DNA of 64,000 nt from assembly GCA_963796685.1 (NCBI GenBank), contig CAWCMR010000025.1, positions 832,001 through 896,000 of the forward strand, in the 5' to 3' direction. A program made the translations under genes and the position numbers. The notes under the pieces are model-generated. The model did no database searches. It saw nothing but the letters and a program-made list of their open reading frames with translations, and was not told the origin of the DNA. Positions 6,575 through 19,819 of this stretch are shown piece after piece (the first letter of the stretch is position 1; every line of letters starts with the position of its first letter). Source of the DNA: an uncultured delta proteobacterium. GTDB lineage: Bacteria > Myxococcota_A > Polyangia > Fen-1088.

Positions 6575-7078
6575 CTAATCTCCTTCGTTAGTTGGGTGAA
6601 CCACAGAGGACACAGAGGACACAGAGGACACAGAGGACACAGAGGACACAGAGACGGACTTCGGAGGTTTCAAACGACGAACTCCGTGTTTGAGCAGGCC
6701 GACGTTGAAGTTGATGAGGAGGCCAAGCGGAAGCCCGGAGAGCTTCAGATAGGACAGGAGCTGCGCACTGTGGAGAGCCACCAGTTGGTCGACCGCCTTG
6801 ACCTCGACGATCAGCACATCGTCGATGACCAGATCGAGACGATATCCACAGTCCAGTCGCGAACCTCGATAGACAACGGGGAGTTTGCGCTGGCGCTCGA
6901 CCCGATGTCCCTGAGAGACAAGCTCATGGGCTAGGCAAATCTCGTACGCCGATTCCAAAAGTCCCGGGCCCAGAAACCGGTGAACTTCAATGGCACTTCC
7001 GATTACCGCCTCCGAGATCCGGTTCAACCCGTCCTTTCCGACCTCTGTGTCCTCTGTGTCCTCTGTGGTGAACATCAA
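6575..7078 (-). CDS. GxxExxY protein (PD-(D/E)XK nuclease-like family)
   Basis: [21 protein letters not shown]; [17 protein letters not shown]; [11 protein letters not shown]...GLLINF. Termini are encoded by 9-bp repeats (TTEDTEDTE; SVSSVSSV). Confidence 0.93.
6600..6655 (+). repeat. 9-bp tandem repeat (CACAGAGGA) x5 plus one variant; left end of the GxxExxY cassette
   Basis: Copies start at 6602, 6611, 6620, 6629, 6638 and 6647 (CACAGAGAC). Confidence 0.95.
7041..7069 (-). repeat. Inverted 9-bp tandem repeat (CCTCTGTG core) x3; right end of the GxxExxY cassette
   Basis: acctctgtg tcctctgtg tcctctgtg gt, the reverse complement of the 6600 array. Confidence 0.95.
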
Positions 7079-8765: not shown

Positions 8766-9446
8766 CTAGGTATCGCAGGTACCGCCAGCCCACACGAAGA
8801 TGTCGGGCTCGCGGGTGCGCGCGCAGCGCAAGCCACACAGCCCGGCCGCGAATCCGAGGGTTTTCTCGGCAAAGAAGTTGAGGTGGGTCGCGTCGCGCGC
8901 GTACCACCACGACGCCACCTCGGCCACGGACGGATAGCATTGCGTGCGCACCACGACGCGCCCGTCGGGCTCGAGGCAATGCTTGAGCCTCCGCATCTCG
9001 CCGCGCAGATCGCGCAGGTGCTCGATGACCTCGCATACGACGACGATGTCGTAGCGGCGGTCGAGCGCGGAAAGACCCTTGCCGTACAGCGGATCGTAGG
9101 CAGCGCAGTCGAATCCACGCCGGCGCAGAAGGTCCGCGAGCACGGCGTTTTCTCCGCTGCCAAAATCGAGCACGCGTGGTGCCGCGATTCCGATCTCCGT
9201 CACCACGTCGGCGACCTGCCCCAGGAAATTGACGTAGCCTTCGTTCGAGGGCGAGTTGTCGTGGTGGGCGTAGCGTGCCCGCTCCTCGTCCTCGCTCGGC
9301 CAGAATTCGCCGGGCACGAACACCAAGCCGCAATTCGGACAATGGACGAACGCCCTGTGCTTGTTCCGTCCCGCCGGTACGCAAGCCGAAGCCACGCACA
9401 GCTTGCAAGCACCGGGGGTCGAGAGCCCGCCTGTCACCAGCCGCAT
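8766..9446 (-). CDS. Class I SAM-dependent methyltransferase with N-terminal Cys (zinc-ribbon-like) motifs
   Basis: CKLC...CPNCGLVF, E..RY..H.N, VLDFGSGE, YDP, EVIEHL, WWY.RD.TH..FF. The start may instead be GTG at 9437. Confidence 0.85.
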   Translation of the reverse strand: MRLVTGGLSTPGACKLCVASACVPAGRNKHRAFVHCPNCGLVFVPGEFWPSEDEERARYAHHDNSPSNEGYVNFLGQVADVVTEIGIAAPRVLDFGSGENAVLADLLRRRGFDCAAYDPLYGKGLSALDRRYDIVVVCEVIEHLRDLRGEMRRLKHCLEPDGRVVVRTQCYPSVAEVASWWYARDATHLNFFAEKTLGFAAGLCGLRCARTREPDIFVWAGGTCDT

Positions 9447-10165
9447 GTCGTGACGACGTCGCTCGGCCCTGCACCCCTGCCGCAACCGTTCGTCCCGCAC
9501 AGTCCGCTGGTGCATTCCTCGTCAAAAGTACAATCCTGGCCGTCGGCTGTCTGGGCCACACACTTGCTGCCGTTGCAACCGGCCCCGGCCACGCACTCCG
9601 AGCGGCCGCCAGGGTTGGTGTCGCAAGCCTCGCCGATACTGGCTGGCGCCGAGCACACGTGCATGGCAGACGGACAAACATTGGGCACCCTGCACTCGGC
9701 GTGTTGCGAGCAGGATTGGCCGAGCTCGGACTGGCCCACCACGCAGTGCTGGGTGCTGTCGCAGTAGGCGGGATCTTCGCAGCCACCCGTGTCCGAGCCG
9801 CAAGACTCGCCGACCTTGGCTATCGGCAGGCAGACGATGTTGGTCAGACTGATGTCGGTGGCCGTGCAGCGCGTGCCCGGCCGGCACACGGGCGAGAAGT
9901 TGCCGGTGGTGGAGCAGTCCTCGCCTGCTTCGAGATCGGCCACGCACAGAGGCTGCTCGCTCTGATCCGTGCAGCGGCACTCGACCACCTTGCCGGCCAC
10001 GGCCTGGCAGTCATTGAAGGCCGTGCACACGCCGCCGAGTTGCACCGAGCCCGGTACCACGCCCGCTTTCTTGGCGGCGGAGTCGCAGGTCGTCAAAGTG
10101 ACCACGCCCACGGCAGCAGCCCCCAGGCATAGCAGGGGAACGATCTTGGCAAGGAGTGTGGTCAT
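9434..10165 (-). CDS. Secreted Cys-rich repeat protein (possible lipoprotein)
   Basis: Hydrophobic N-terminus ending LTTC; repeated G(E/Q)xC...C...C...C modules. Confidence 0.75.
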   Translation of the reverse strand: MTTLLAKIVPLLCLGAAAVGVVTLTTCDSAAKKAGVVPGSVQLGGVCTAFNDCQAVAGKVVECRCTDQSEQPLCVADLEAGEDCSTTGNFSPVCRPGTRCTATDISLTNIVCLPIAKVGESCGSDTGGCEDPAYCDSTQHCVVGQSELGQSCSQHAECRVPNVCPSAMHVCSAPASIGEACDTNPGGRSECVAGAGCNGSKCVAQTADGQDCTFDEECTSGLCGTNGCGRGAGPSDVVTTCGW

Positions 10166-10336
10166 GGTGCGGTCGCTGGTGATTCGCCTGTTAGACCACG
10201 GCCGCGCTGATTCTATTCACCCCCGGTCCCGGCTCACCCATGCGCCGGCTTCGCACAGGGCTCTTGCTGTGATCGCTGTCGCTTCAATTCGTCCCGGGGC
10301 AAGGGTACTCTTGCAGGCAAAGGATCGGAGCCGATC

Positions 10337-10939
10337 ATGAAAGAGCGCGATATCAGAGACCACATCAATGCCTTTCTCCGAACCAGGCTCCAGAGTTTGG
10401 TGGTGCCTGCTTCGATGGGGATCGGGCTTGCCCTGGGGGCATGTGACACCTCGGCGCTGACATCCAACCAGGATGGCTCCGGGGACGTTTCAGCCATCCA
10501 GCCCAGCTCCGGCGGTGCTGGTGGCGGCCTGACCGGGGCGGGCGGATCGCTCTATGGGCTCGGAGGATCCACGAACCCCGGCCATGGCGGGTCTGGGGGT
10601 GGCTCCGGTGGCTCCGCGGGTGCCGGCGGCTCCGCGGGTGCGGGTGGTGGCTCGGGGGGGGCTGGCGGTGGCGGTTTGACCGGGGTGGGCGGAATGGTGT
10701 ACGGAACCGGAGGATTCCCCTACTCTAGCTCGGGTGGTGCCGGTGGTGGCTTGGCCGGGGCGGACGGAACGGTGTATGGAATGCCGGGATTCAAAGACGC
10801 CGGCCCGTCAGGTAGCGGCGGCGCGATCGATTCCGGGGTCATTCCCGAAGCAGGCAAGGGCGATGCGGGGCACAAGGCAGACGCCCTGGTTTCGGAAGCC
10901 GGGGTTGCCTCGCCACCCGACGGTTCTATGAATGAGTAG
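10337..10939 (+). CDS. Gly-rich lipoprotein with three GGGL(T/A)G...(L/V)YG repeats; candidate radical SAM substrate
   Basis: Lipobox LALGAC; repeats GGGLTGAGGSLYG, GGGLTGVGGMVYG, GGGLAGADGTVYG; GGAG upstream of the start. Confidence 0.8.
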   Translation: MKERDIRDHINAFLRTRLQSLVVPASMGIGLALGACDTSALTSNQDGSGDVSAIQPSSGGAGGGLTGAGGSLYGLGGSTNPGHGGSGGGSGGSAGAGGSAGAGGGSGGAGGGGLTGVGGMVYGTGGFPYSSSGGAGGGLAGADGTVYGMPGFKDAGPSGSGGAIDSGVIPEAGKGDAGHKADALVSEAGVASPPDGSMNE

Positions 10940-11005
10940 ACCATGCTCGCCGCTCGAAGATGACTTTGGCAGGCCCGCGGCCGCGGCTCGTAATCGAGAA
11001 GAACC

Positions 11006-12148
11006 GTGATCGAAGTCTTGGCGCAGGTCGGATTCTTTCCCCACACTTGCGTGTGGGAGCTGACGCTGGCGTGCAACATGCGGTGCAAGCACTGCGGCTC
11101 CGTCGCCGGCAAGCGGCGTGCGGACGAGCTATCGCTCGACGAGTGTTTGCGCGTGGCTGGCGAATTGGTGGCGCTGGGATGCCAACGCATCACCCTGATC
11201 GGCGGCGAGCCAATCCTCTACCCGGGCTGGCACGAGGTGGCCAAGCGTCTGGTCGAGCTGGGAGCCCAGGTCAACATGATTTCGAACGGCCTGACCTGGT
11301 CGCCCAAACACCTCGAGCAGGCGAAGGCGGCTGGGCTGTGCGCGGTGGGCTTCAGCCTCGACGGTTTCGAGAAGGAGCACGACGCGTTCCGGGTGCCTGG
11401 CTCGTTCGCGCGGGTGGTGCGCGCCATCGACGATTGCGTGGCGGCCGGCATGCGCACGGCGGTGAACACGACCATCAACCGGCTCAATCAAGGTCTCCTC
11501 GCGGAGATGCGCACCTTCTTGATGGAGCACGGGGTTTTCGCCTGGCAACCGCAGCTGGCCACCGCCGCGGGGAACATGGGAGAGCACCGCGAGCTGCTCG
11601 TGCGTCCGGAAGATCTGTTGTGGCTGGTGCCAAAAATCGCGGAGCTGTGCCTGATCGACTGCCCGGAATTCGAGATCTGCGTCGGCCACAACATCGGCTA
11701 CTTCGGCAATCCCGAATCGGCCCTGCGCGCCGCGGATGTCGCCCTACCCTTTTGGCTCGGGTGCCGAGCCGGTTGCCAAGTGATCGGGATCGAGAGTGGC
11801 GGAGATGTGAAGGGCTGCCTCTCCTTGCCTTCGTCGGTGCACGGCGAACGTCGCTTCGTCGAGGGCAACGTGCGGGAGATGGGTCTAAGCGACCTTTGGA
11901 ATCGCGCGGACGCTTTCGCGTACAACCGGTGCTTCCAAGAACGGCAGCTGTGCGGCTTCTGCCGCGTTTGCCGCTTTCGCGACGTGTGTCGCGGCGGCTG
12001 CAGTTGGGCTTCCTATGCCCAGGGCGGCCGCGGCAACGAGCAGTGCTTCTATCACCAGGCGGTCAAGCACGGGCGCCTCGATCTGCTCGCCGAAGCGCCG
12101 ACCGCGGAAGAAAAGAGTTACTTCGAGGGCGGCGTCCCGGTGCGCTGA
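11006..12148 (+). CDS. Radical SAM/SPASM maturase, PlpX-like (TIGR03913-type) candidate splicease
   Basis: VWELTLACNMRCKHCGS.AG..R..ELS, TLIGGE, W.GC.AG...GIE..GD.KGC.SLP, GFCRVCRFRDVCRGGC.W. Confidence 0.85.
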   Translation: MIEVLAQVGFFPHTCVWELTLACNMRCKHCGSVAGKRRADELSLDECLRVAGELVALGCQRITLIGGEPILYPGWHEVAKRLVELGAQVNMISNGLTWSPKHLEQAKAAGLCAVGFSLDGFEKEHDAFRVPGSFARVVRAIDDCVAAGMRTAVNTTINRLNQGLLAEMRTFLMEHGVFAWQPQLATAAGNMGEHRELLVRPEDLLWLVPKIAELCLIDCPEFEICVGHNIGYFGNPESALRAADVALPFWLGCRAGCQVIGIESGGDVKGCLSLPSSVHGERRFVEGNVREMGLSDLWNRADAFAYNRCFQERQLCGFCRVCRFRDVCRGGCSWASYAQGGRGNEQCFYHQAVKHGRLDLLAEAPTAEEKSYFEGGVPVR

Positions 12149-12155
12149 GCTTCGG

Positions 12156-15084
12156 TTACCGCCGCACGAACAGCTTCAACTTCCCGATGCCGACGCCCGG
12201 GAGGTAGTGGGCAAGCAGAAACTGGTGCAGCTCGGGAAAGCCGGTCAACGACTGGGCACTGTCCAATCTGTCTCCGGTCACGAAGGGGAAGACGTCATTC
12301 TCCTCGACCACGACGACCGAAGGCGGGTGGCTGGTCAAGTCCGCCATCAAGCGCGGGCGATACCGGCCGCCCCATGCAACCCGTTGTGGGACGTCGTAGA
12401 TGTAGGGCGTCGAGGATGCCCGTCCGGCCAAGTCGTAGATGACGGGTTCGAACCCCCAGACGTAGATCGGCTGGTCGGGAGGTGTATTGCGCACAATCCA
12501 GCTCGCGATCCTGCGGTTGTCGCCCGCGCTCACGTTTGACGCCGAATGAAGACGGTCCATCAGGTCTTGGCGCCGCTCGGCGTTTGCGAAGACGGACTGT
12601 GAACGTACGCGGTTGCGCGCCCAAAACGAGGCGCGATACGGCGGAAGAATCCTTTCGTCCTTGAGCAACAAGAGAACGCCGACCAGCGCGAGCACCGGCA
12701 GAAGGTGCGTCCGCAGGCGTGTCCACAACTTCCACAATCCCCACCCGGCGGGCAACCCGAGCAAGAGAACGATGGCTGCGTAGTGATACGGGAAGAACTT
12801 GGCTTGGAGTGCGACACCGATGATGGGAAAGAAGGCGACGGCAAGGACATGCAGAAGACCCAGGCGCTCGCGCGCGGCCAAGATGGGCAGGGAGAGCGCG
12901 AACAGAATACCGAAGGCATCGTGGCGGGAAAACCCGAACAGCGACTCGGTCCACGCGCGCGTGAAGAGCGCGAGGGCATCGTGTTTCCGATATCCCAGCT
13001 TGGTGTAGCTGGGCACGAACCGGAACAGCGTGTCGACCATCGCGGGCATGGCTCCCTTCGCGGCGATGTAGGACCCGACACATGCCAGCGGAAGCGCTGC
13101 CCCGAGGGCGATGAAGAAGAGCGGCCCCGCGCTGGCTCGCAGTCGGGCGAGGCGCCCGCTCGATCCGGCTGCGCGCGCATGGCCGAGCAAGAACGGGGTC
13201 AGCACCACGGCCCCGGCCAGTCTGCGGCTTGAGCACCCCAGCCATCCCGTAGCCCACGCCTACCAGCAGCCAGAGCGCCTTCTGCGCGGCCCCACCACGG
13301 TTCGGCAAGGTGGCGCGCTCGCTGGAACATAAGACCAGCGCCCAGATCAGGAAGAGGCCCGCAAAGCCTTCGGGCTGTGCCGTGCTCCAGAATTCGAGCT
13401 GGACGTAGGCCATGACCGACAGGGCAACGGCGGGCAAGGCCGGGCGCCACGAACCGACCCAACGTTTGCAAAGCACGAGGAACGCGGGAAAAAGGGATAG
13501 AAGCCCGATCGCCTCCACGATACGAATGCCGACCATGCCTCGGCCGAACAGAAGGCGAGCGACGGCGTAGACGAAGAAGATCCCCGGTGGCTTGAAATCC
13601 CAAGCGTCTCGGTAGGGCGCTCCACCCTCGAGCATGGTTCGCGCCACGACGGCGTAGATTCCCTGATCGCGGCCATACTGAAAGAGCAAAAGGTGAGCGA
13701 CGAGATAGAGGGATAGCAAGACGCAGGCGACCAGCCCCGCCGCCTCCACCCGCGCTGCGACAGCGTGCGGGAGCGGGATCAACCATCGGCCAAGCCGCCG
13801 CACGCGCTCGGCAAAGACTCTCATGGATGCTTCACCCGCCAGCATGACCACCCAGACCACGCTCAGCAACGCGGCACCCGCGAACACGTAGGAGGCAGTC
13901 AGAAGCGCCGCTGCATGCCGCAAGCCGCGGACCTCGAAATAGCTGGCCATGAGAACGGCCGAAAGGGCAAGGGTGCGCGCGACCGTGCTCCCTGTTTCCC
14001 CGATGGTGGGCGGCAGGTCCGCGAGTCGCTGGCAAAGCAACGCCAGGCAAAGGATCGCGGGGGCGAACTGGTGCTCCCACGCGATGGGCGCCGCCAGGGT
14101 CGCGGCCAGCCAGGCCAGACCCATGACATCCGCGCGCAGGCTCGCGTCGCGAGGCAAGGCCCGAATGCGGAGCGCAAGGTAGAGGAGACTCAGGCCGCCG
14201 AGGCAGAGCGAAACCATACGCGCGGCGCTGCTCAACGGCGCGACCACGAGATGGGCCGCCAATTCCGGGTGAAGCAAACGGGCCACCACCCCATTCCACG
14301 ATTGGTTCGAGTAGTAGGCGTAGCCGGACGAGAGCGCCGGTAACACCCGAGTCAGGTAGTCCACGTTCGCGGACCAGCCTGCGTAGGCGACCGACACCAG
14401 GGCAAGCCCGAGACCCGACAGCAAGGTGCTGACCAGCGTTCGGCGCGCGTGCCAATAGAGCAGCGGCACCATGAGCACCAGGGTGGGATGGAGCGCGACC
14501 GCCAAGGCCACGGCGACCCCGGCGACGACCTCCTTTCCCCTTTGCATGGCCACCAGGCTGGCGCCGAGCAGGACGGTGATGAGCATCGTGGTCTGGTTGT
14601 GCTCGAGGGCGCGCATGAGCGGCTGCCAGAGCAGCAACGCGAGCGCGAGGACGCCAGCGCGCCAAGCCGATGCCATGGTCGAGGCGCGGGTGGGCCGCAC
14701 CAGCAGCGCCAGCAGGACAAAGATCGCCGCGAACAGACAGCGATTGGCCATGAACAGCCAAGCAACGGCGTCATAAGGTGAGAGCCCGGCGAGCGGCCGG
14801 TAGAGCAAGGCGGAAAGCGGCGCGGAGGTGAAGGACGCCCCCTCGGCGGGGATCGTCGCGTACATCGGCTGCCCCCGGGAAGCACGCAGGGCGGCCTCGG
14901 CAGCGGGCCACACGTCGCTGATGTCCGTGCCTTCGATCCGCCAAAGGCTGGTCACGGCGTCCCATCCCGCGTTGCTTTCACTGCTGACGCGGGTCTGGAT
15001 GAATCCCAACAGAACGCCCAGCAGACCGAGCAGAAGCGCTTGGCGCGCGAAGGTACGCTGACCCAACCAAGAGAGCTTCATCAT
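12156..15084 (-). CDS. Polytopic GT-C glycosyltransferase (GT87-like N-half, ArnT/PMT-like C-half), apparent frameshift at ~13221
   Basis: Many TM segments; NQSWNG and PIAWEH (GT87-like), then RDQGIY...PYRDAWDFKPPG. Continues in ORF 12156..13208 (KFFPYHY, IYVWGFEP) after removing one base. Confidence 0.75.
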
Positions 15085-16850
15085 CGACGCCTGAGCCGTG
15101 AGAGCGCCCGCCTGAACTGTCCGAGATCGATGGCCGAGTCCGGTCTCACCCACATCCCGGCAAGGGTGGGCTCGTACCCGAGGCTGCTCAGCTCCGAGCG
15201 CCCCGCTACGCCCTGGTCCACGGTGAGGAACCACGGCGTCTGGACCAGGTCCGGTCTGAGCCTGCCCACGCTGTACGCGTAGTCCCACTTCGTGTGCCCA
15301 GGATAAAAGGGTAGGTGCGACGGGAGATGCGCGATCACCGGGTCGTTCTTGCCGAGCAAGTCGACCGACTGCGCGCGCGAAAAATAGGGGATCGCTCCGG
15401 CCGCGACGACGGCCACCGAGGCGTGCGGAGCGAGCGCTTCCCTCAGCGCCAGTCCCGTGCGCGTCAGCGTCGCATCCTCGCCGACGCCAGGGGCGTTCTC
15501 GGACAGCCACCCCGAGACAGGCGTGCCGTCGAGGGCAACCAGCAAACCAAGCGACAAGAGGACAGGGAGCAGTCCACCGCGCAGATGTCCCGTCTCCGGG
15601 AACCGCCTGAACAGATAGGAGCCCAACAGCCAAAGAGCGATGATTTCCACCGCACCGAGCGGCACCGGCGCTTGTACCAGACCGGCGTGCGGGGCGCCGC
15701 CGACAGGCTCGACCTTGACGACCGTCGCCAGGCCGACGGCAGCGGCGCAGGCGAGCAGGCTTGCCACCGCGGCGCTCGCGCCGATCGTCCACCGCGCGAT
15801 GTTGACCAGGCCAGCGGACGCGAGAATCAAGAGCAGCGGAACCATCGGGGTGATGTACCGGTTGCTGTAGAGCATCCACTCCCACGCATCCCCGCCGACG
15901 AACACCGAGTACATCGCCGCGGTCGCCACGAGGAGCGCCAACAACAGCGGCTCGCGCGCCGGCCCCCGACGCGGCAGAAACACGAACGCGGCGGCGACCG
16001 TGGGCGCGAGCAGGTGAGCGAGCTCCAATTCCGCAAGGGCTTTCAGCCCGCGGCCGAGGCGCGCCCCCGGCGCGATCCCCGTCATCTTGAGGTAGTAGGT
16101 GTTCGGGAGCAGCGCGTGGTAGTAGCCTTCGCGAAAGACGGCCAGGGCAACGAGAGGAATCGCGATCGCCGCAGCCACGGGAAGGCCGACGCGGCGCCAT
16201 TCCGCGCGTGGCAGAGCAGCCGCCAGCCAAAGCGCGATCACCACCACCGGCAGGGTCGCATCATCGCGGGTGAGCTCCGCGGCGGCGAACAGCACACACA
16301 GGACGGCGATGTCGCGCGGCCGGCGATGTCGCCGGATCTCGAGCGCCGCGAGGGTCGCGGACGAGACCAGGAAGGTCAGCACTCCGACCTCCATCCCCCG
16401 CAGCGTCCAGAAGACGAGCGGGTAGTAGAGCGCTGTCAACGACATCGCCAGAAGCATTGAAAGACGGCTTCCTGTCAGCAACCGCGCCAGCTTGCCCACG
16501 ACAAGAACGTTCGCGAGCAACAGCACGGCGCCGGTGCTCATCACGGCGAGCGAAATCGTCGGCTCGGGCAGACGGAGAAGATGGAGCACCGTCATCCACA
16601 ACGTCCACAAGAGGTTGGAATACCCCTCCACCGGCGCCCCATGGGGGTTCCACATCAGGCCGAGACCCTCGGCAAGGTTGCGTGCGTAGCGCATGGAGAT
16701 CATCGCGTCGTCGAACAACGAGAAGTACGTCCGGCCATCCACCTCGAACGCCGATCGCGCGATGAAGACCACCGACACGGCGGCGCTCGCCAGGAGGACC
16801 AGCGCGGTCGCCAAGTTGACGCCGCGAGAACGAGTCGACTCCTCGGACAT
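15081..16850 (-). CDS. GT-C membrane glycosyltransferase (arabinofuranosyltransferase-like)
   Basis: FDDAMISMRYARNL..G.GL.WN...VEGYSN.LW, GME, LPNTYY.K, GGD.W...RY, AAGAIPYFS..DLLGKND, GH.KWD. Confidence 0.8.
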   Translation of the reverse strand: MSEESTRSRGVNLATALVLLASAAVSVVFIARSAFEVDGRTYFSLFDDAMISMRYARNLAEGLGLMWNPHGAPVEGYSNLLWTLWMTVLHLLRLPEPTISLAVMSTGAVLLLANVLVVGKLARLLTGSRLSMLLAMSLTALYYPLVFWTLRGMEVGVLTFLVSSATLAALEIRRHRRPRDIAVLCVLFAAAELTRDDATLPVVVIALWLAAALPRAEWRRVGLPVAAAIAIPLVALAVFREGYYHALLPNTYYLKMTGIAPGARLGRGLKALAELELAHLLAPTVAAAFVFLPRRGPAREPLLLALLVATAAMYSVFVGGDAWEWMLYSNRYITPMVPLLLILASAGLVNIARWTIGASAAVASLLACAAAVGLATVVKVEPVGGAPHAGLVQAPVPLGAVEIIALWLLGSYLFRRFPETGHLRGGLLPVLLSLGLLVALDGTPVSGWLSENAPGVGEDATLTRTGLALREALAPHASVAVVAAGAIPYFSRAQSVDLLGKNDPVIAHLPSHLPFYPGHTKWDYAYSVGRLRPDLVQTPWFLTVDQGVAGRSELSSLGYEPTLAGMWVRPDSAIDLGQFRRALSRLRRR

Positions 16851-16895
16851 TGAATGGCCTGGTCCCTTGCCTGGATCCATCCGATGGTACCCAGG

Positions 16896-18564: not shown

Positions 18565-19473
18565 ATGAAGATCGTCAACCCTCGCATCGTCCACGTCCTC
18601 AAGAACCCGGTCGCCTTCGCGCTCCAGGTCCTGAAGGCCTTCCAAGCGAACCAGGGCCTGCTTCTCGCCGGCGCGGTCGCTTACTACGCGCTGCTCTCCA
18701 TCGTGCCGCTGCTCATCCTGATGGTGATCGCGCTATCGCAGGTGATCGACCAGGACGTGCTCTTGGCGACGTTGCGCCAGGCGCTGGAATACGTGGTGCC
18801 GGGCGAGGGCAAGGCGGTGGTGGCGGAGTTGCGGACGTTCCTCGCTCACCGCGAGGTAATCGGCTGGGTACTGCTCATCACGATGCTGTTCTTCAGCTCG
18901 CTCGGCTTCAAGGTGCTGGAGAGTGCAATCTCGGTAATCTTCCTGCACCGCGTGACCAAGCGCAAGCGGCACTTCCTCGTATCCCTGCTGCTGCTGCCCT
19001 TTGGCTACATCTTCTTCATCGGCGCAGCGCTGTTCGTGGGCACGTTCGTGCTCGCCGACCTGGTGACGATAGGCGGCGCGAATCTTGCCATTCTGGGGCA
19101 TAGCTGGTCGCTGAGCGGCTTCTCGCGCTTGCTCATCTACGTCGCCGGCGTGACCGTGGAGATTCTGCTCATCTCGGCGATCTACTACTTCATGCCGGTA
19201 GGCAGGCTGTCGGCGCAGCACGCGCTGATCGGCGGCGCCACGGCGGGTCTGCTCTGGGAATTCATCCGCCGTGGGTTGCGCTGGTATTTCGGCACGCTGT
19301 CGCAAGTGAGCGTGGTGTATGGCTCGCTCACCACGGGCATCGTCCTGCTGCTTAGCCTAGAAATGGCCGCCACGCTGCTGTTGCTGGGCGCGCAGGTGAT
19401 TGCGGAATACGAAAGGATCGAGACCGGCGAAGCGGAGAAGCCGCGGGGGCCGATGTCGGCCGATGGCCTCTGA
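18565..19473 (+). CDS. YihY/BrkB family inner membrane protein
   Basis: LAGAVAYYALLSIVPLL; VYGSL...LLL...LLLGA. Confidence 0.92.
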   Translation: MKIVNPRIVHVLKNPVAFALQVLKAFQANQGLLLAGAVAYYALLSIVPLLILMVIALSQVIDQDVLLATLRQALEYVVPGEGKAVVAELRTFLAHREVIGWVLLITMLFFSSLGFKVLESAISVIFLHRVTKRKRHFLVSLLLLPFGYIFFIGAALFVGTFVLADLVTIGGANLAILGHSWSLSGFSRLLIYVAGVTVEILLISAIYYFMPVGRLSAQHALIGGATAGLLWEFIRRGLRWYFGTLSQVSVVYGSLTTGIVLLLSLEMAATLLLLGAQVIAEYERIETGEAEKPRGPMSADGL

Positions 19474-19819
19474 ATCAGACGACCCTGGACATCCATTGTC
19501 TCCAGGCATTCCAGACCGTGATGTGCGACGACTACTGGAGTTGGAGCTTCTGGGCGGTGAGCACCCCGGCCATAGACGCGCCGATCGATGCCGCCAGCGA
19601 CTGGTAGCACCTTTCCGCCTTGGCCATTCCTTCTCTTTCTCGCCCCCCAACCAGACCGCCGGATCTAGCCAGCGTTTGGAGGGTTTGACCGACGGTCCGC
19701 CGGGGCGGTCACGGTCGACCATCGCCGGGATACCGCGACGTCAAGCGCCGGGGCCCGTCCGGGCCACACCCGCCGGGCGTCGACCTCGCGACCGCTGCCA
19801 TTAGGGGCCTGGAAAAAAT

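Follow-up and report, generated by a model that had tools for sequence, protein, structure and literature searches.

Radical S-adenosylmethionine (SAM) enzymes known as spliceases remove C8H9NO (135.06 Da), the equivalent of tyramine, from X-Y-G sites of their precursors, leaving an alpha-keto-beta-amino amide (PMC11626197; PMC5995677). Type I systems require a Y protein, but many binary systems have none, and the leader helix of the precursor RhaA occupies the Y-protein site on its enzyme and acts as an activator (PMC11414181). To date, 27 spliceotide systems have been characterised and 939 predicted (PMC10533398), these systems having been mined from radical SAM/SPASM genes with Y-G-rich neighbours in 189 genera (PMC10849128). 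Spliceotides with ketoamide groups act as inhibitors of serine and cysteine proteases (PMC11626197; PMC9811515). Here we describe a gene pair that compares closely with these systems in some respects and departs from them in others. It lies in a 64,000-nucleotide stretch (the window) of contig CAWCMR010000025.1, positions 832,001 to 896,000, from an uncultured delta proteobacterium of the class Polyangia, and consists of a gene for a Gly-rich, lipoprotein-like protein of 200 residues, which we call the precursor, followed by a gene for a radical SAM/SPASM enzyme.

Precursor and enzyme form a conserved unit. The account that fits them best, to which as a whole chain we give slightly better than even standing, is a two-gene system resembling those behind RiPPs (peptides that ribosomes make and that are modified after translation), in which leader-guided tyramine excision is followed by export through Sec and LspA as a lipoprotein. 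In the pathway that we infer, the long n-region of the signal peptide (residues 1-18) would form a conserved amphipathic helix that docks on the neighbouring enzyme in the cytoplasm and activates it, as in the binary spliceases. The enzyme would then act on the Tyr residues of three [L/V]-Y-G sites in a disordered, Gly-rich core, with loss of C8H9NO (135.06 Da) per site and formation of an alpha-keto-beta-amino amide from the preceding Leu or Val. Since the enzyme would be cytoplasmic and oxygen-sensitive and its substrate carries an export signal, modification must precede passage through Sec, after which Cys36 would receive its lipid and signal peptidase II (LspA) would cleave the protein. 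As the conserved leader helix lies inside the n-region, this single cut would remove leader and signal peptide together, which would account for the lack of a protease or transporter gene with the pair and make a dedicated leader protease or exporter unnecessary. The result would be a disordered protein, held by its lipid anchor and bearing as many as three electrophilic ketoamides, plausibly covalent-reversible warheads against proteases at the cell envelope.

The precursor is composed of 31% Gly, 12% Ser and 12% Ala. Its N-terminus, MKERDIRDHINAFLRTRLQSLVVPASMGIGLALGA, runs up to C36 and comprises a charged stretch, about 17 hydrophobic residues and a lipobox, L-G-A-C; the 164-residue core that follows is 36% Gly, with much Ser and Ala. 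The lipoprotein pattern is present, with RTRLQS as n-region, LVVPASMGIGLA as h-region and L-G-A-C36 conforming to the consensus [LVI]-[ASTVIG]-[GAS]-C, although the n-region as a whole is atypically long. All 16 aligned leaders have M1, R7 and C36, at least 90% keep P24, and C36 is found in the context L/V/M-x-[GAS]-C after about 15 hydrophobic residues. AlphaFold2, supplied with a 15-sequence alignment, predicted a single helix over residues 3-34, with a predicted local distance difference test score (pLDDT) of 85 for residues 1-10 and 78 for residues 11-20, and gave a pLDDT below 50 over most of the rest (mean 49.9). In this model the precursor is a confident N-terminal helix and a hydrophobic helix followed by a disordered core. 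By analogy, the conserved charged helix fits the leader-helix activator known from binary spliceases, and the export signal seems to double as a recognition handle for the enzyme. No Pfam or NCBIfam family matched the precursor.

The length of the n-region, at least 18 residues and far beyond that of usual signal peptides, invites a different reading of these data, in which the hydrophobic stretch with its Cys is no lipoprotein signal. The N-terminal 36 residues would then be a RiPP-type leader or an uncleaved anchor, and the product a membrane protein of the cytoplasmic face or of type II, or else a peptide freed by an unlinked protease. One relative (L032) has no Cys at this position, and 7 of the best 150 database matches to the leader, some of them fragments, have no lipobox-like Cys by pattern. 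The other 143 keep a lipobox-like [GAS]-C, mostly at residue 36, and this conservation, the invariance of C36 in 16 of 16 leaders and the lack of a protease or exporter gene travelling with the pair make this reading quite improbable in our view.

Conservation of the pair is evident at several levels. The enzyme gene starts 66 nt downstream of the precursor gene on the same strand, and a convergent open reading frame (ORF) ends 7 nt past its stop codon. When the window was compared with three related genomes, only precursor and enzyme recurred together, in two of them (G009 and G190); the genes for ComM, a methyltransferase, a Cys-rich lipoprotein and a membrane protein and the downstream 599-aa ORF (15081-16880) had no synteny in the compared genomes. 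No PlpY-like small ORF or protease gene adjoins the pair in the window, and no protease or exporter gene travels with it in the syntenic genomes and metagenome loci compared. Using a profile of 40 positions, covering leader and lipobox and built from 16 precursors, we looked for leaders upstream of related enzymes on the same strand. In genome loci of the same class, counts that include the loci from which the profile was built, a leader was matched for 3 of 4 enzymes with at least 70% identity, 8 of 9 at 55-70% and 6 of 10 at 50-55%. The two misses above 55% identity are a truncated enzyme copy (L011/L088) and an enzyme of the window's own genome that is fused to a tetratricopeptide repeat (TPR) region (L002). 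From an independent metagenome set, in which 414 enzyme relatives were confirmed and the best 80 kept, we obtained 79 loci. Where the enzyme was at least 58% identical and at least 900 nt of upstream DNA was available, a leader precursor stood upstream in 33 of 33 loci, and a whole or cut leader was present in 7 of 20 loci with shorter upstream DNA.

It is highly probable from these results that the lipoprotein is the substrate of its neighbour. Were the enzyme to act on another molecule instead, with the lipoprotein a co-regulated partner or mere neighbour, one could point to the distant relatives, which occur without a precursor. Their neighbours are YkuD-domain proteins in one family and an M10 metalloprotease in L016, and the TPR-fused L002 stands alone; in the more distant genome loci, a leader lies upstream of just 1 of 24 enzymes at 45-50% identity and 1 of 28 at 35-45%. 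Yet co-occurrence is tight at 55% identity and above (11 of 13 in genomes, besides the metagenome contigs), and the genome of the TPR-fused exception holds an orphan precursor elsewhere. In addition, leader type tracks enzyme clade, and Tyr with its flanks is the sole conserved feature of the core across precursors. We therefore think it very unlikely that the lipoprotein is not the substrate.

Three of the four Tyr residues in the precursor lie within [LV]-Y-G motifs. Given the Gly richness of the core, YG alone is unremarkable, with three or more occurrences in 26,470 of 200,000 shuffles, but three [LVIM]-Y-G motifs are rare, arising in just 57 of 200,000. The Y-G sites are not recent DNA duplicates; Tandem Repeats Finder detected only repeats of 9-21 nt in the Gly/Ser/Ala linker (10598-10672). 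In the window's subfamily, defined by enzymes with at least 80% identity and represented by 11 distinct precursors with 3-5 Tyr each, Gly follows all 48 core Tyr residues. The residue before Tyr at the same sites is Val (20), Leu (13), Met (4), Lys (3), Ile (3), Pro (2), Gly (2) or Thr (1). If splicing is correct, this residue becomes the P1-like side chain of the ketoamide.

As judged from sequence comparison, the context of the window's sites, x-Y-G-[LMTV]-[GP], resembles that of the reference sites of Nif11, DUF1843, Treponema and PlpA precursors. The splice tag of PlpA is PIRPLYGLPI (PMC10533398). A Nostoc Nif11 precursor ends in SIALYGLPPELF (...ALYGLPPELF), with a hypothetical ORF of 71 aa behind it where PlpY would stand, and an unannotated ORF before an Agathobacter relative of the enzyme ends in ...GPVMYGTGVRM, to be compared with GGMVYGTGGF of site 2. 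The most likely chemistry is tyramine excision at L72-Y-G, V121-Y-G and V146-Y-G. A sequence-only reading that preceded this work had singled out the Gly/Ser-rich lipoprotein with its lipobox, the three LYG/VYG/VYG motifs and the radical SAM/SPASM gene directly behind it. The translation of the ORF, the 66-nt gap and the Pfam matches bear this out, and X-Y-G is conserved at the 48 sites of the subfamily. Its suggestion that the charged N-terminal stretch may be the recognition leader is supported by the conserved helix, the invariant M1, R7 and C36 and 308 database clusters with this leader. It had also remarked that no PlpY or RiPP recognition element (RRE) gene or protease adjoins the pair; the ORF list agrees, and absence of PlpY is normal for binary systems as described in PMC11414181.

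The enzyme scores 85 bits against Radical_SAM and 28 bits against SPASM in Pfam, and of its SPASM-region Cys residues C253, C271, C319, C322, C328, C332 and C347 are invariant in 30 aligned homologues. Among NCBIfam models, the two best are TIGR03913 (261.1 bits, cut-off 591.75) and TIGR04103 (243.2 bits, cut-off 725), with the enzyme falling far below both cut-offs. The next are TIGR04133 (123.5 bits, cut-off 425), MftC (120.9, cut-off 265), NirJ (117) and PqqE (64.9, cut-off 381.35), and the cross-linking maturase models WgkB and DynA give 66 and 59 bits. For calibration, a true TIGR03913 member and a true TIGR04103 member from Nostoc score 768 and 853 bits on their own models and 438 and 414 bits on each other's, whereas six enzymes of the window's clade score 235-295 bits on both. 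Annotated reference enzymes were found by tblastn against plasmids. BLASTP aligned the enzyme with an Azospirillum TIGR03913 member over 372 aa (37% identity) and with a Nostoc TIGR04103 member over 351 aa (35%). Its clade has in common with the references the motifs VWExTLxCNxxCxHCGSxAG, WQxQ...GN, IGY[FY]G, GCxAG...G[IL]ExxGxxKGCxSLx and GFCxxC...CRGGCxW; Tsukamurella MftC lacks WQxQ and IGY[FY]G and has HCLSSSG where the references have HCGSxAG. The clade differs from the references in an extra Cys257, a 5-residue insertion after SLPS and the lack of a long C-terminal extension.

In a quick maximum-likelihood tree of 42 rows with thin reference sampling, the reference enzymes (Nostoc, Tropicibacter, Aureibacter and two from Azospirillum) form a clade with an SH-aLRT support of 97, and MftC stands on a long outgroup branch. 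A sequence search of the Protein Data Bank returned SkfB as the best match to the enzyme (77.5 bits) and no close solved relative. On scores and tree we rejected membership of the PqqE, heme (NirJ/AhbD) and mycofactocin maturase families, the placements that would have told against the splicease kinship proposed in the sequence-only reading. The three enzyme motifs that it had quoted are present and common to the splicease-type references. Of the kinship itself, one part held, in that the nearest families, TIGR03913 and TIGR04103, are of splicease type; membership of TIGR03913 did not, at 261 against 592 bits; the enzyme scores below both cut-offs, and the quick tree places it outside the known clade. 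By these comparisons the enzyme is splicease-like and lies outside TIGR03913 and TIGR04103.

Several points weigh against tyramine excision followed by lipoprotein export. The window's clade is known here from genes alone, and the lipoprotein status of the precursor rests on a sequence pattern. The co-occurrence figures come from kin that are not independent; they overstate the number of independent events and are counts rather than probabilities. Judged by the profile scores, the enzyme clade is more distant from each splicease-type family than those two are from each other, and in the tree it stands beside the reference clade and not within it (30 rows, SH-aLRT 90); radical SAM/SPASM chemistry can change at such sequence distances. 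As for the sites, the precursor sequences indicate that Y-G is not a family-wide rule. Sister subfamilies carry Y-M, Y-S or Y-A. In 20 precursors beside enzymes with 73-79% identity, the 154 Tyr residues are followed by Met (98), Ser (21), Gly (13) or Ala (10), among others, and at 593 sites across the family the following residue is Met (185), Gly (90), Ala (70), Ser (65), Leu (64) or Ile (51) in the commonest cases. Thus, by sequence, X-Y-G is conserved exactly in the window's subfamily while enzymes only about 25% diverged serve Y-M sites. With sister subfamilies of this kind, tyramine excision is likely but unproven.

The same pair and the same export route could instead support another Tyr-directed radical chemistry, such as cyclophane-type cross-linking, in which a C-C or C-O bond would join a neighbouring residue to the Tyr ring or C-beta, or else desaturation or other modification at C-beta. 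In the family motif, Y-[MGASLI]-A-P-x-P, position Tyr+2 has Ala, Val or Ile at 376, 55 and 13 of the 593 sites and there offers a C-beta-H, as do the three-residue cyclophane sites of triceptides. The position of the clade outside both curated splicease families, the dispensability of Gly after Tyr in the sister subfamilies, and the presence of the Tyr-directed radical SAM/SPASM enzymes MftC and PqqE among detectable relatives point the same way. In contrast, cross-linking maturases score far lower on the enzyme than the splicease-type models (WgkB 66 and DynA 59 against 243-261 bits), X-Y-G is invariant at the 48 sites of the window's subfamily, the site context matches known splice sites, and Tyr+2 in the subfamily is L, T, M, V, I, F or G, the last of which has no C-beta. 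We consider a different chemistry, the main rival reading, unlikely, though by no means negligible. The features of the pair are collected in Table 1.

Table 1. Features of the precursor-enzyme pair (window coordinates; residue numbers refer to the respective protein).
Feature	Position	Strand	Basis or remark
Precursor gene; Gly/Ser/Ala-rich lipoprotein-like protein, 200 aa	10337..10939	+	ORF and translation; leader helix, hydrophobic lipobox stretch, disordered Tyr-bearing core
Charged helix of n-region, residues 1-18, MKERDIRDHINAFLRTRL; proposed recognition/activating leader	10337..10390	+	Conservation, AlphaFold2
h-region and lipobox L-G-A-C, residues 19-36, QSLVVPASMGIGLALGA-C	10391..10444	+	Cys36 codon at 10442-10444
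Site 1, L72-Y73-G74 (GGSLYGLGGS)	10550..10558	+	Translation; X-Y-G kept in subfamily
Site 2, V121-Y122-G123 (GGMVYGTGGF)	10697..10705	+	Translation; X-Y-G kept in subfamily
Fourth Tyr, Y129 (GGFPYSSSGG; FPYSS), outside Y-G context	10721..10723	+	Translation
Site 3, V146-Y147-G148 (DGTVYGMPGF)	10772..10780	+	Translation; X-Y-G kept in subfamily
Radical SAM/SPASM enzyme gene, 380 aa, GTG start; splicease-like	11006..12148	+	Pfam, NCBIfam, tree, motifs
Radical SAM cluster motif C23-x3-C27-x2-C30 (CNMRCKHC)	11072..11095	+	Invariant in 30/30 aligned homologues
SPASM region: C253, C257, C271, C319, C322, C328, C332, C347	11762..12046	+	C-x2-C-x5-C-x3-C at 319-332

The closest parallels are the tyramine spliceases PlpX/PcpX with PlpY (type I, Pleurocapsa), the binary RhaX, RasX and RcsX (type II, Rheinheimera) and TIGR04103, the 'nif11-class peptide radical SAM maturase 3'. 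These enzymes have a radical SAM domain, a full SPASM domain and motifs in common with the window's enzyme, and their precursors adjoin the enzyme gene and carry X-Y-G with a hydrophobic residue next and then Pro or Gly. Like the binary systems, the window's pair has no Y protein and its precursor has a predicted N-terminal helix, comparable with the RhaA leader helix described in PMC11414181. The window's precursor, however, resembles neither Nif11 nor NHLP precursors; this lipoprotein-like protein of 200 aa has its leader within the signal peptide. The family has 3-11 sites per protein, Y-M, Y-S or Y-A in its sisters and no leader protease or exporter gene, and the enzyme scores 243 against 725 bits on TIGR04103 and carries the 5-residue insertion and Cys257.

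The best-scoring model, TIGR03913 ('GDL motif peptide-associated radical SAM/SPASM maturase'), belongs to enzymes that accompany DUF1843 peptides on Azospirillum plasmids, and it is to one of these that the window's enzyme is 37% identical; a DUF1843-linked radical SAM protein of Aureibacter scores 535 bits on this model, under the cut-off of 592. The DUF1843 peptides beside TIGR03913 enzymes begin with MLYGGAM, KPYGVAI, PMYMATM, VRPYGPAM, MYMATV, VLYAAG, PMYAAS or QPYGAG. The alternation of Gly, Met and Ala after Tyr is thus not peculiar to the Polyangia family. The layout of these peptides (L038, L040 and L045, on Azospirillum and Aureibacter plasmids) is the reverse of that of the Polyangia precursors, the x-Y-[G/M/A] site coming first, at the N-terminus, and a conserved helix after it. 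They are 54-70 aa long and have no signal peptide, and their enzymes, unlike the window's enzyme, are extended at the C-terminus by about 130 aa.

A radical SAM/SPASM gene directly after a lipoprotein gene is also found on a Treponema plasmid (TIGR04133/TIGR04134). That lipoprotein carries C-Y-G-M-P (CYGMPE) right after the lipobox, with Y-G-M-P as in site 3. Unlike the window's precursor, it carries just one site, placed at the mature N-terminus, lacks the extended leader helix and is folded in its C-terminal part. The window's enzyme reaches 124 of the 425 bits required by TIGR04133 and is 28% identical to the Treponema enzyme, and its precursor has no match to TIGR04134, on which the Treponema lipoprotein scores 43.7 against a cut-off of 39.8. 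MftC and PqqE likewise are radical SAM/SPASM maturases that act on a Tyr of a ribosomal peptide, but the window's enzyme is below their cut-offs, and its pair includes neither an MftB/PqqD-type RRE partner nor a substrate with a C-terminal GVY or E-x3-Y. We found no literature that joins spliceotides with lipoproteins, with the survey of Scott et al. 2022 (Chem), which may already list this family, outside the coverage of the search. For spliceotides and myxobacteria, the words co-occur in some papers; in the relevant passages of PMC11626197 the two are unrelated, and the spliceotide passages of PMC8868522 concern cyanobacteria. Judged by titles, no paper tied DUF1843 to splicing, and a search with the TIGR accessions returned an unrelated paper only.

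To place the precursor in a wider family, the leader profile was compared with 1.84 billion representative proteins. At E<=1e-3 it matched 308 clusters, of which 101 passed E<=1e-10, and the alignment nearly always fell on the matched protein's own residues 1-40. Among nine matches that we looked up, six had a name, in each case "hypothetical protein", and three had none; one came from a Polyangia metagenome-assembled genome. The 593 Tyr sites in 143 database cores give the consensus (P/A)(V/A)(P/A)(K/L/V/P/R)-Y-(M/G/A/S/L/I)-A-(P/Q)-x-P, with Pro at Tyr+3 in 278 and at Tyr+5 in 341. Tyr is preceded by Lys or Arg at 176 of them, by Leu, Val or Ile at 229 and by Asp at some, with different residues mixed within single proteins, which carry from 3 to 11 Tyr sites. 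In a hand-collected set of 23 precursors, Met follows Tyr at 31% of 115 sites against a background of 2.8%. One metagenome contig (L132, + strand) has two different leader-family precursors in tandem, starting at about 350 and 1081, upstream of one TPR-type enzyme. The precursor of G009 (L009, G009:C10) is split into two overlapping frames of 158 and 136 aa, and a metagenome contig with an identical N-terminal sequence (L123) has one ORF of 281 aa; the split is either an assembly frameshift or a real disruption.

The enzyme has 10 matches at E<=1e-10 in its own genome (G000). As to other lipoproteins with this leader, for which the sequence-only reading had suggested looking, the genome holds those of a second pair and of an orphan precursor. 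In the second pair, at C25:31209-32339 (L003), the enzyme is 56% identical and the precursor, of 146 aa, shares leader and lipobox with that of the window but has no Y-G, its Tyr residues lying in VPYLVALP, AYVPIPP and LVYIYYMQ. The orphan precursor, at C6:~19224-19761 (+), has Y-S, Y-P, Y-M, Y-V and Y-M sites and no radical SAM gene nearby, and its leader resembles those beside TPR-fused enzymes of other genomes (L012, L013, L046, L048). The orphan TPR-fused enzyme L002 (C25:1585424-1586563, - strand) is 61% identical to the window's enzyme and has no precursor nearby; the two orphans probably form a pair acting in trans.

Two tandem radical SAM/SPASM paralogues (L004/L005, C5:388626-390715), 42-43% identical to the window's enzyme, follow a gene for a 366-aa protein of no Pfam family. 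An N-terminal domain accounts for about 130 of its residues, an internal stretch, LLLGLAAAGC, is lipobox-like, one region is rich in Gly, and the C-terminal part contains Cys and ends in CAVPVYKGVSFPD. In a clade of the same class with enzymes 44-50% identical to that of the window (L020-L029, L031, L033 and L035), no leader precursor was found upstream in the 12 loci with upstream DNA, L025 holding almost none. In five inspected loci of this group (L020, L021, L022, L026, L028), a homologous protein of about 410-540 aa is encoded downstream of the enzyme; that of L020, the one scanned, matches the YkuD L,D-transpeptidase domain with 61 bits. Proteins of this type may be a different substrate or have a different role. 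At L016:319-1479 (+), and similarly in L017, a gene for a matrixin-like metalloprotease (Peptidase_M10, 43 bits) stands directly upstream of the radical SAM gene in place of the precursor, an arrangement of interest given the proposed role in protease inhibition.

We considered two neighbouring genes as further parts of the system and rejected both, as they are non-syntenic in G009 and G190: the methyltransferase gene (8766-9515) and the divergent gene for the Cys-rich lipoprotein (9434-10165, - strand). The latter encodes 243 aa with a lipobox LTT-C and repeated modules rich in C-x-C, and has no Pfam or NCBIfam match. Elsewhere in the window, 6575-7078 (-) encodes a PD-(D/E)XK nuclease family protein (PDDEXK_3, 142 bits) with a C-terminal run of Ser-Val-Ser repeats. 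A scan of 10000-12500 for promoters and terminators, uninformative for a high-GC organism, found none. The sequencing runs are four soil-metagenome DNA runs from one study, with small shares (0.05-0.13), and no RNA run is listed, a result uninformative as to expression.

Taken together, and extended to the family, these observations permit a bolder proposal that we put forward tentatively and with some doubt. The pair would represent a large, unannotated myxobacterial family of lipoproteins in which the Sec/LspA signal peptide carries a RiPP leader, and in which one housekeeping cut frees a disordered chain, anchored at the surface, with 3-11 ketoamides, a polyvalent, covalent-reversible trap for several classes of protease that is made without need of Gly after Tyr. 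If so, such traps would act at the cell envelope of predatory soil bacteria, and the residue before Tyr, varied within single proteins, would be the P1 side chain of the inhibitor. There would also be many compact natural pairs of enzyme and tag, with Gly, Met, Ser or Ala after Tyr, for splicease-based protein engineering. If the chemistry is splicing, ketoamide and beta-amino-acid editing of the backbone would no longer be confined to small secreted RiPPs but reach whole membrane-anchored proteins, by a new logic in which a general secretion signal doubles as the leader of a maturase. If the chemistry differs, the pair would define a new Tyr-directed radical SAM modification of lipoproteins. 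Were the family proposal true, the widespread "hypothetical" lipoproteins of Polyangia, 308 clusters at 50% identity, would acquire a testable role.

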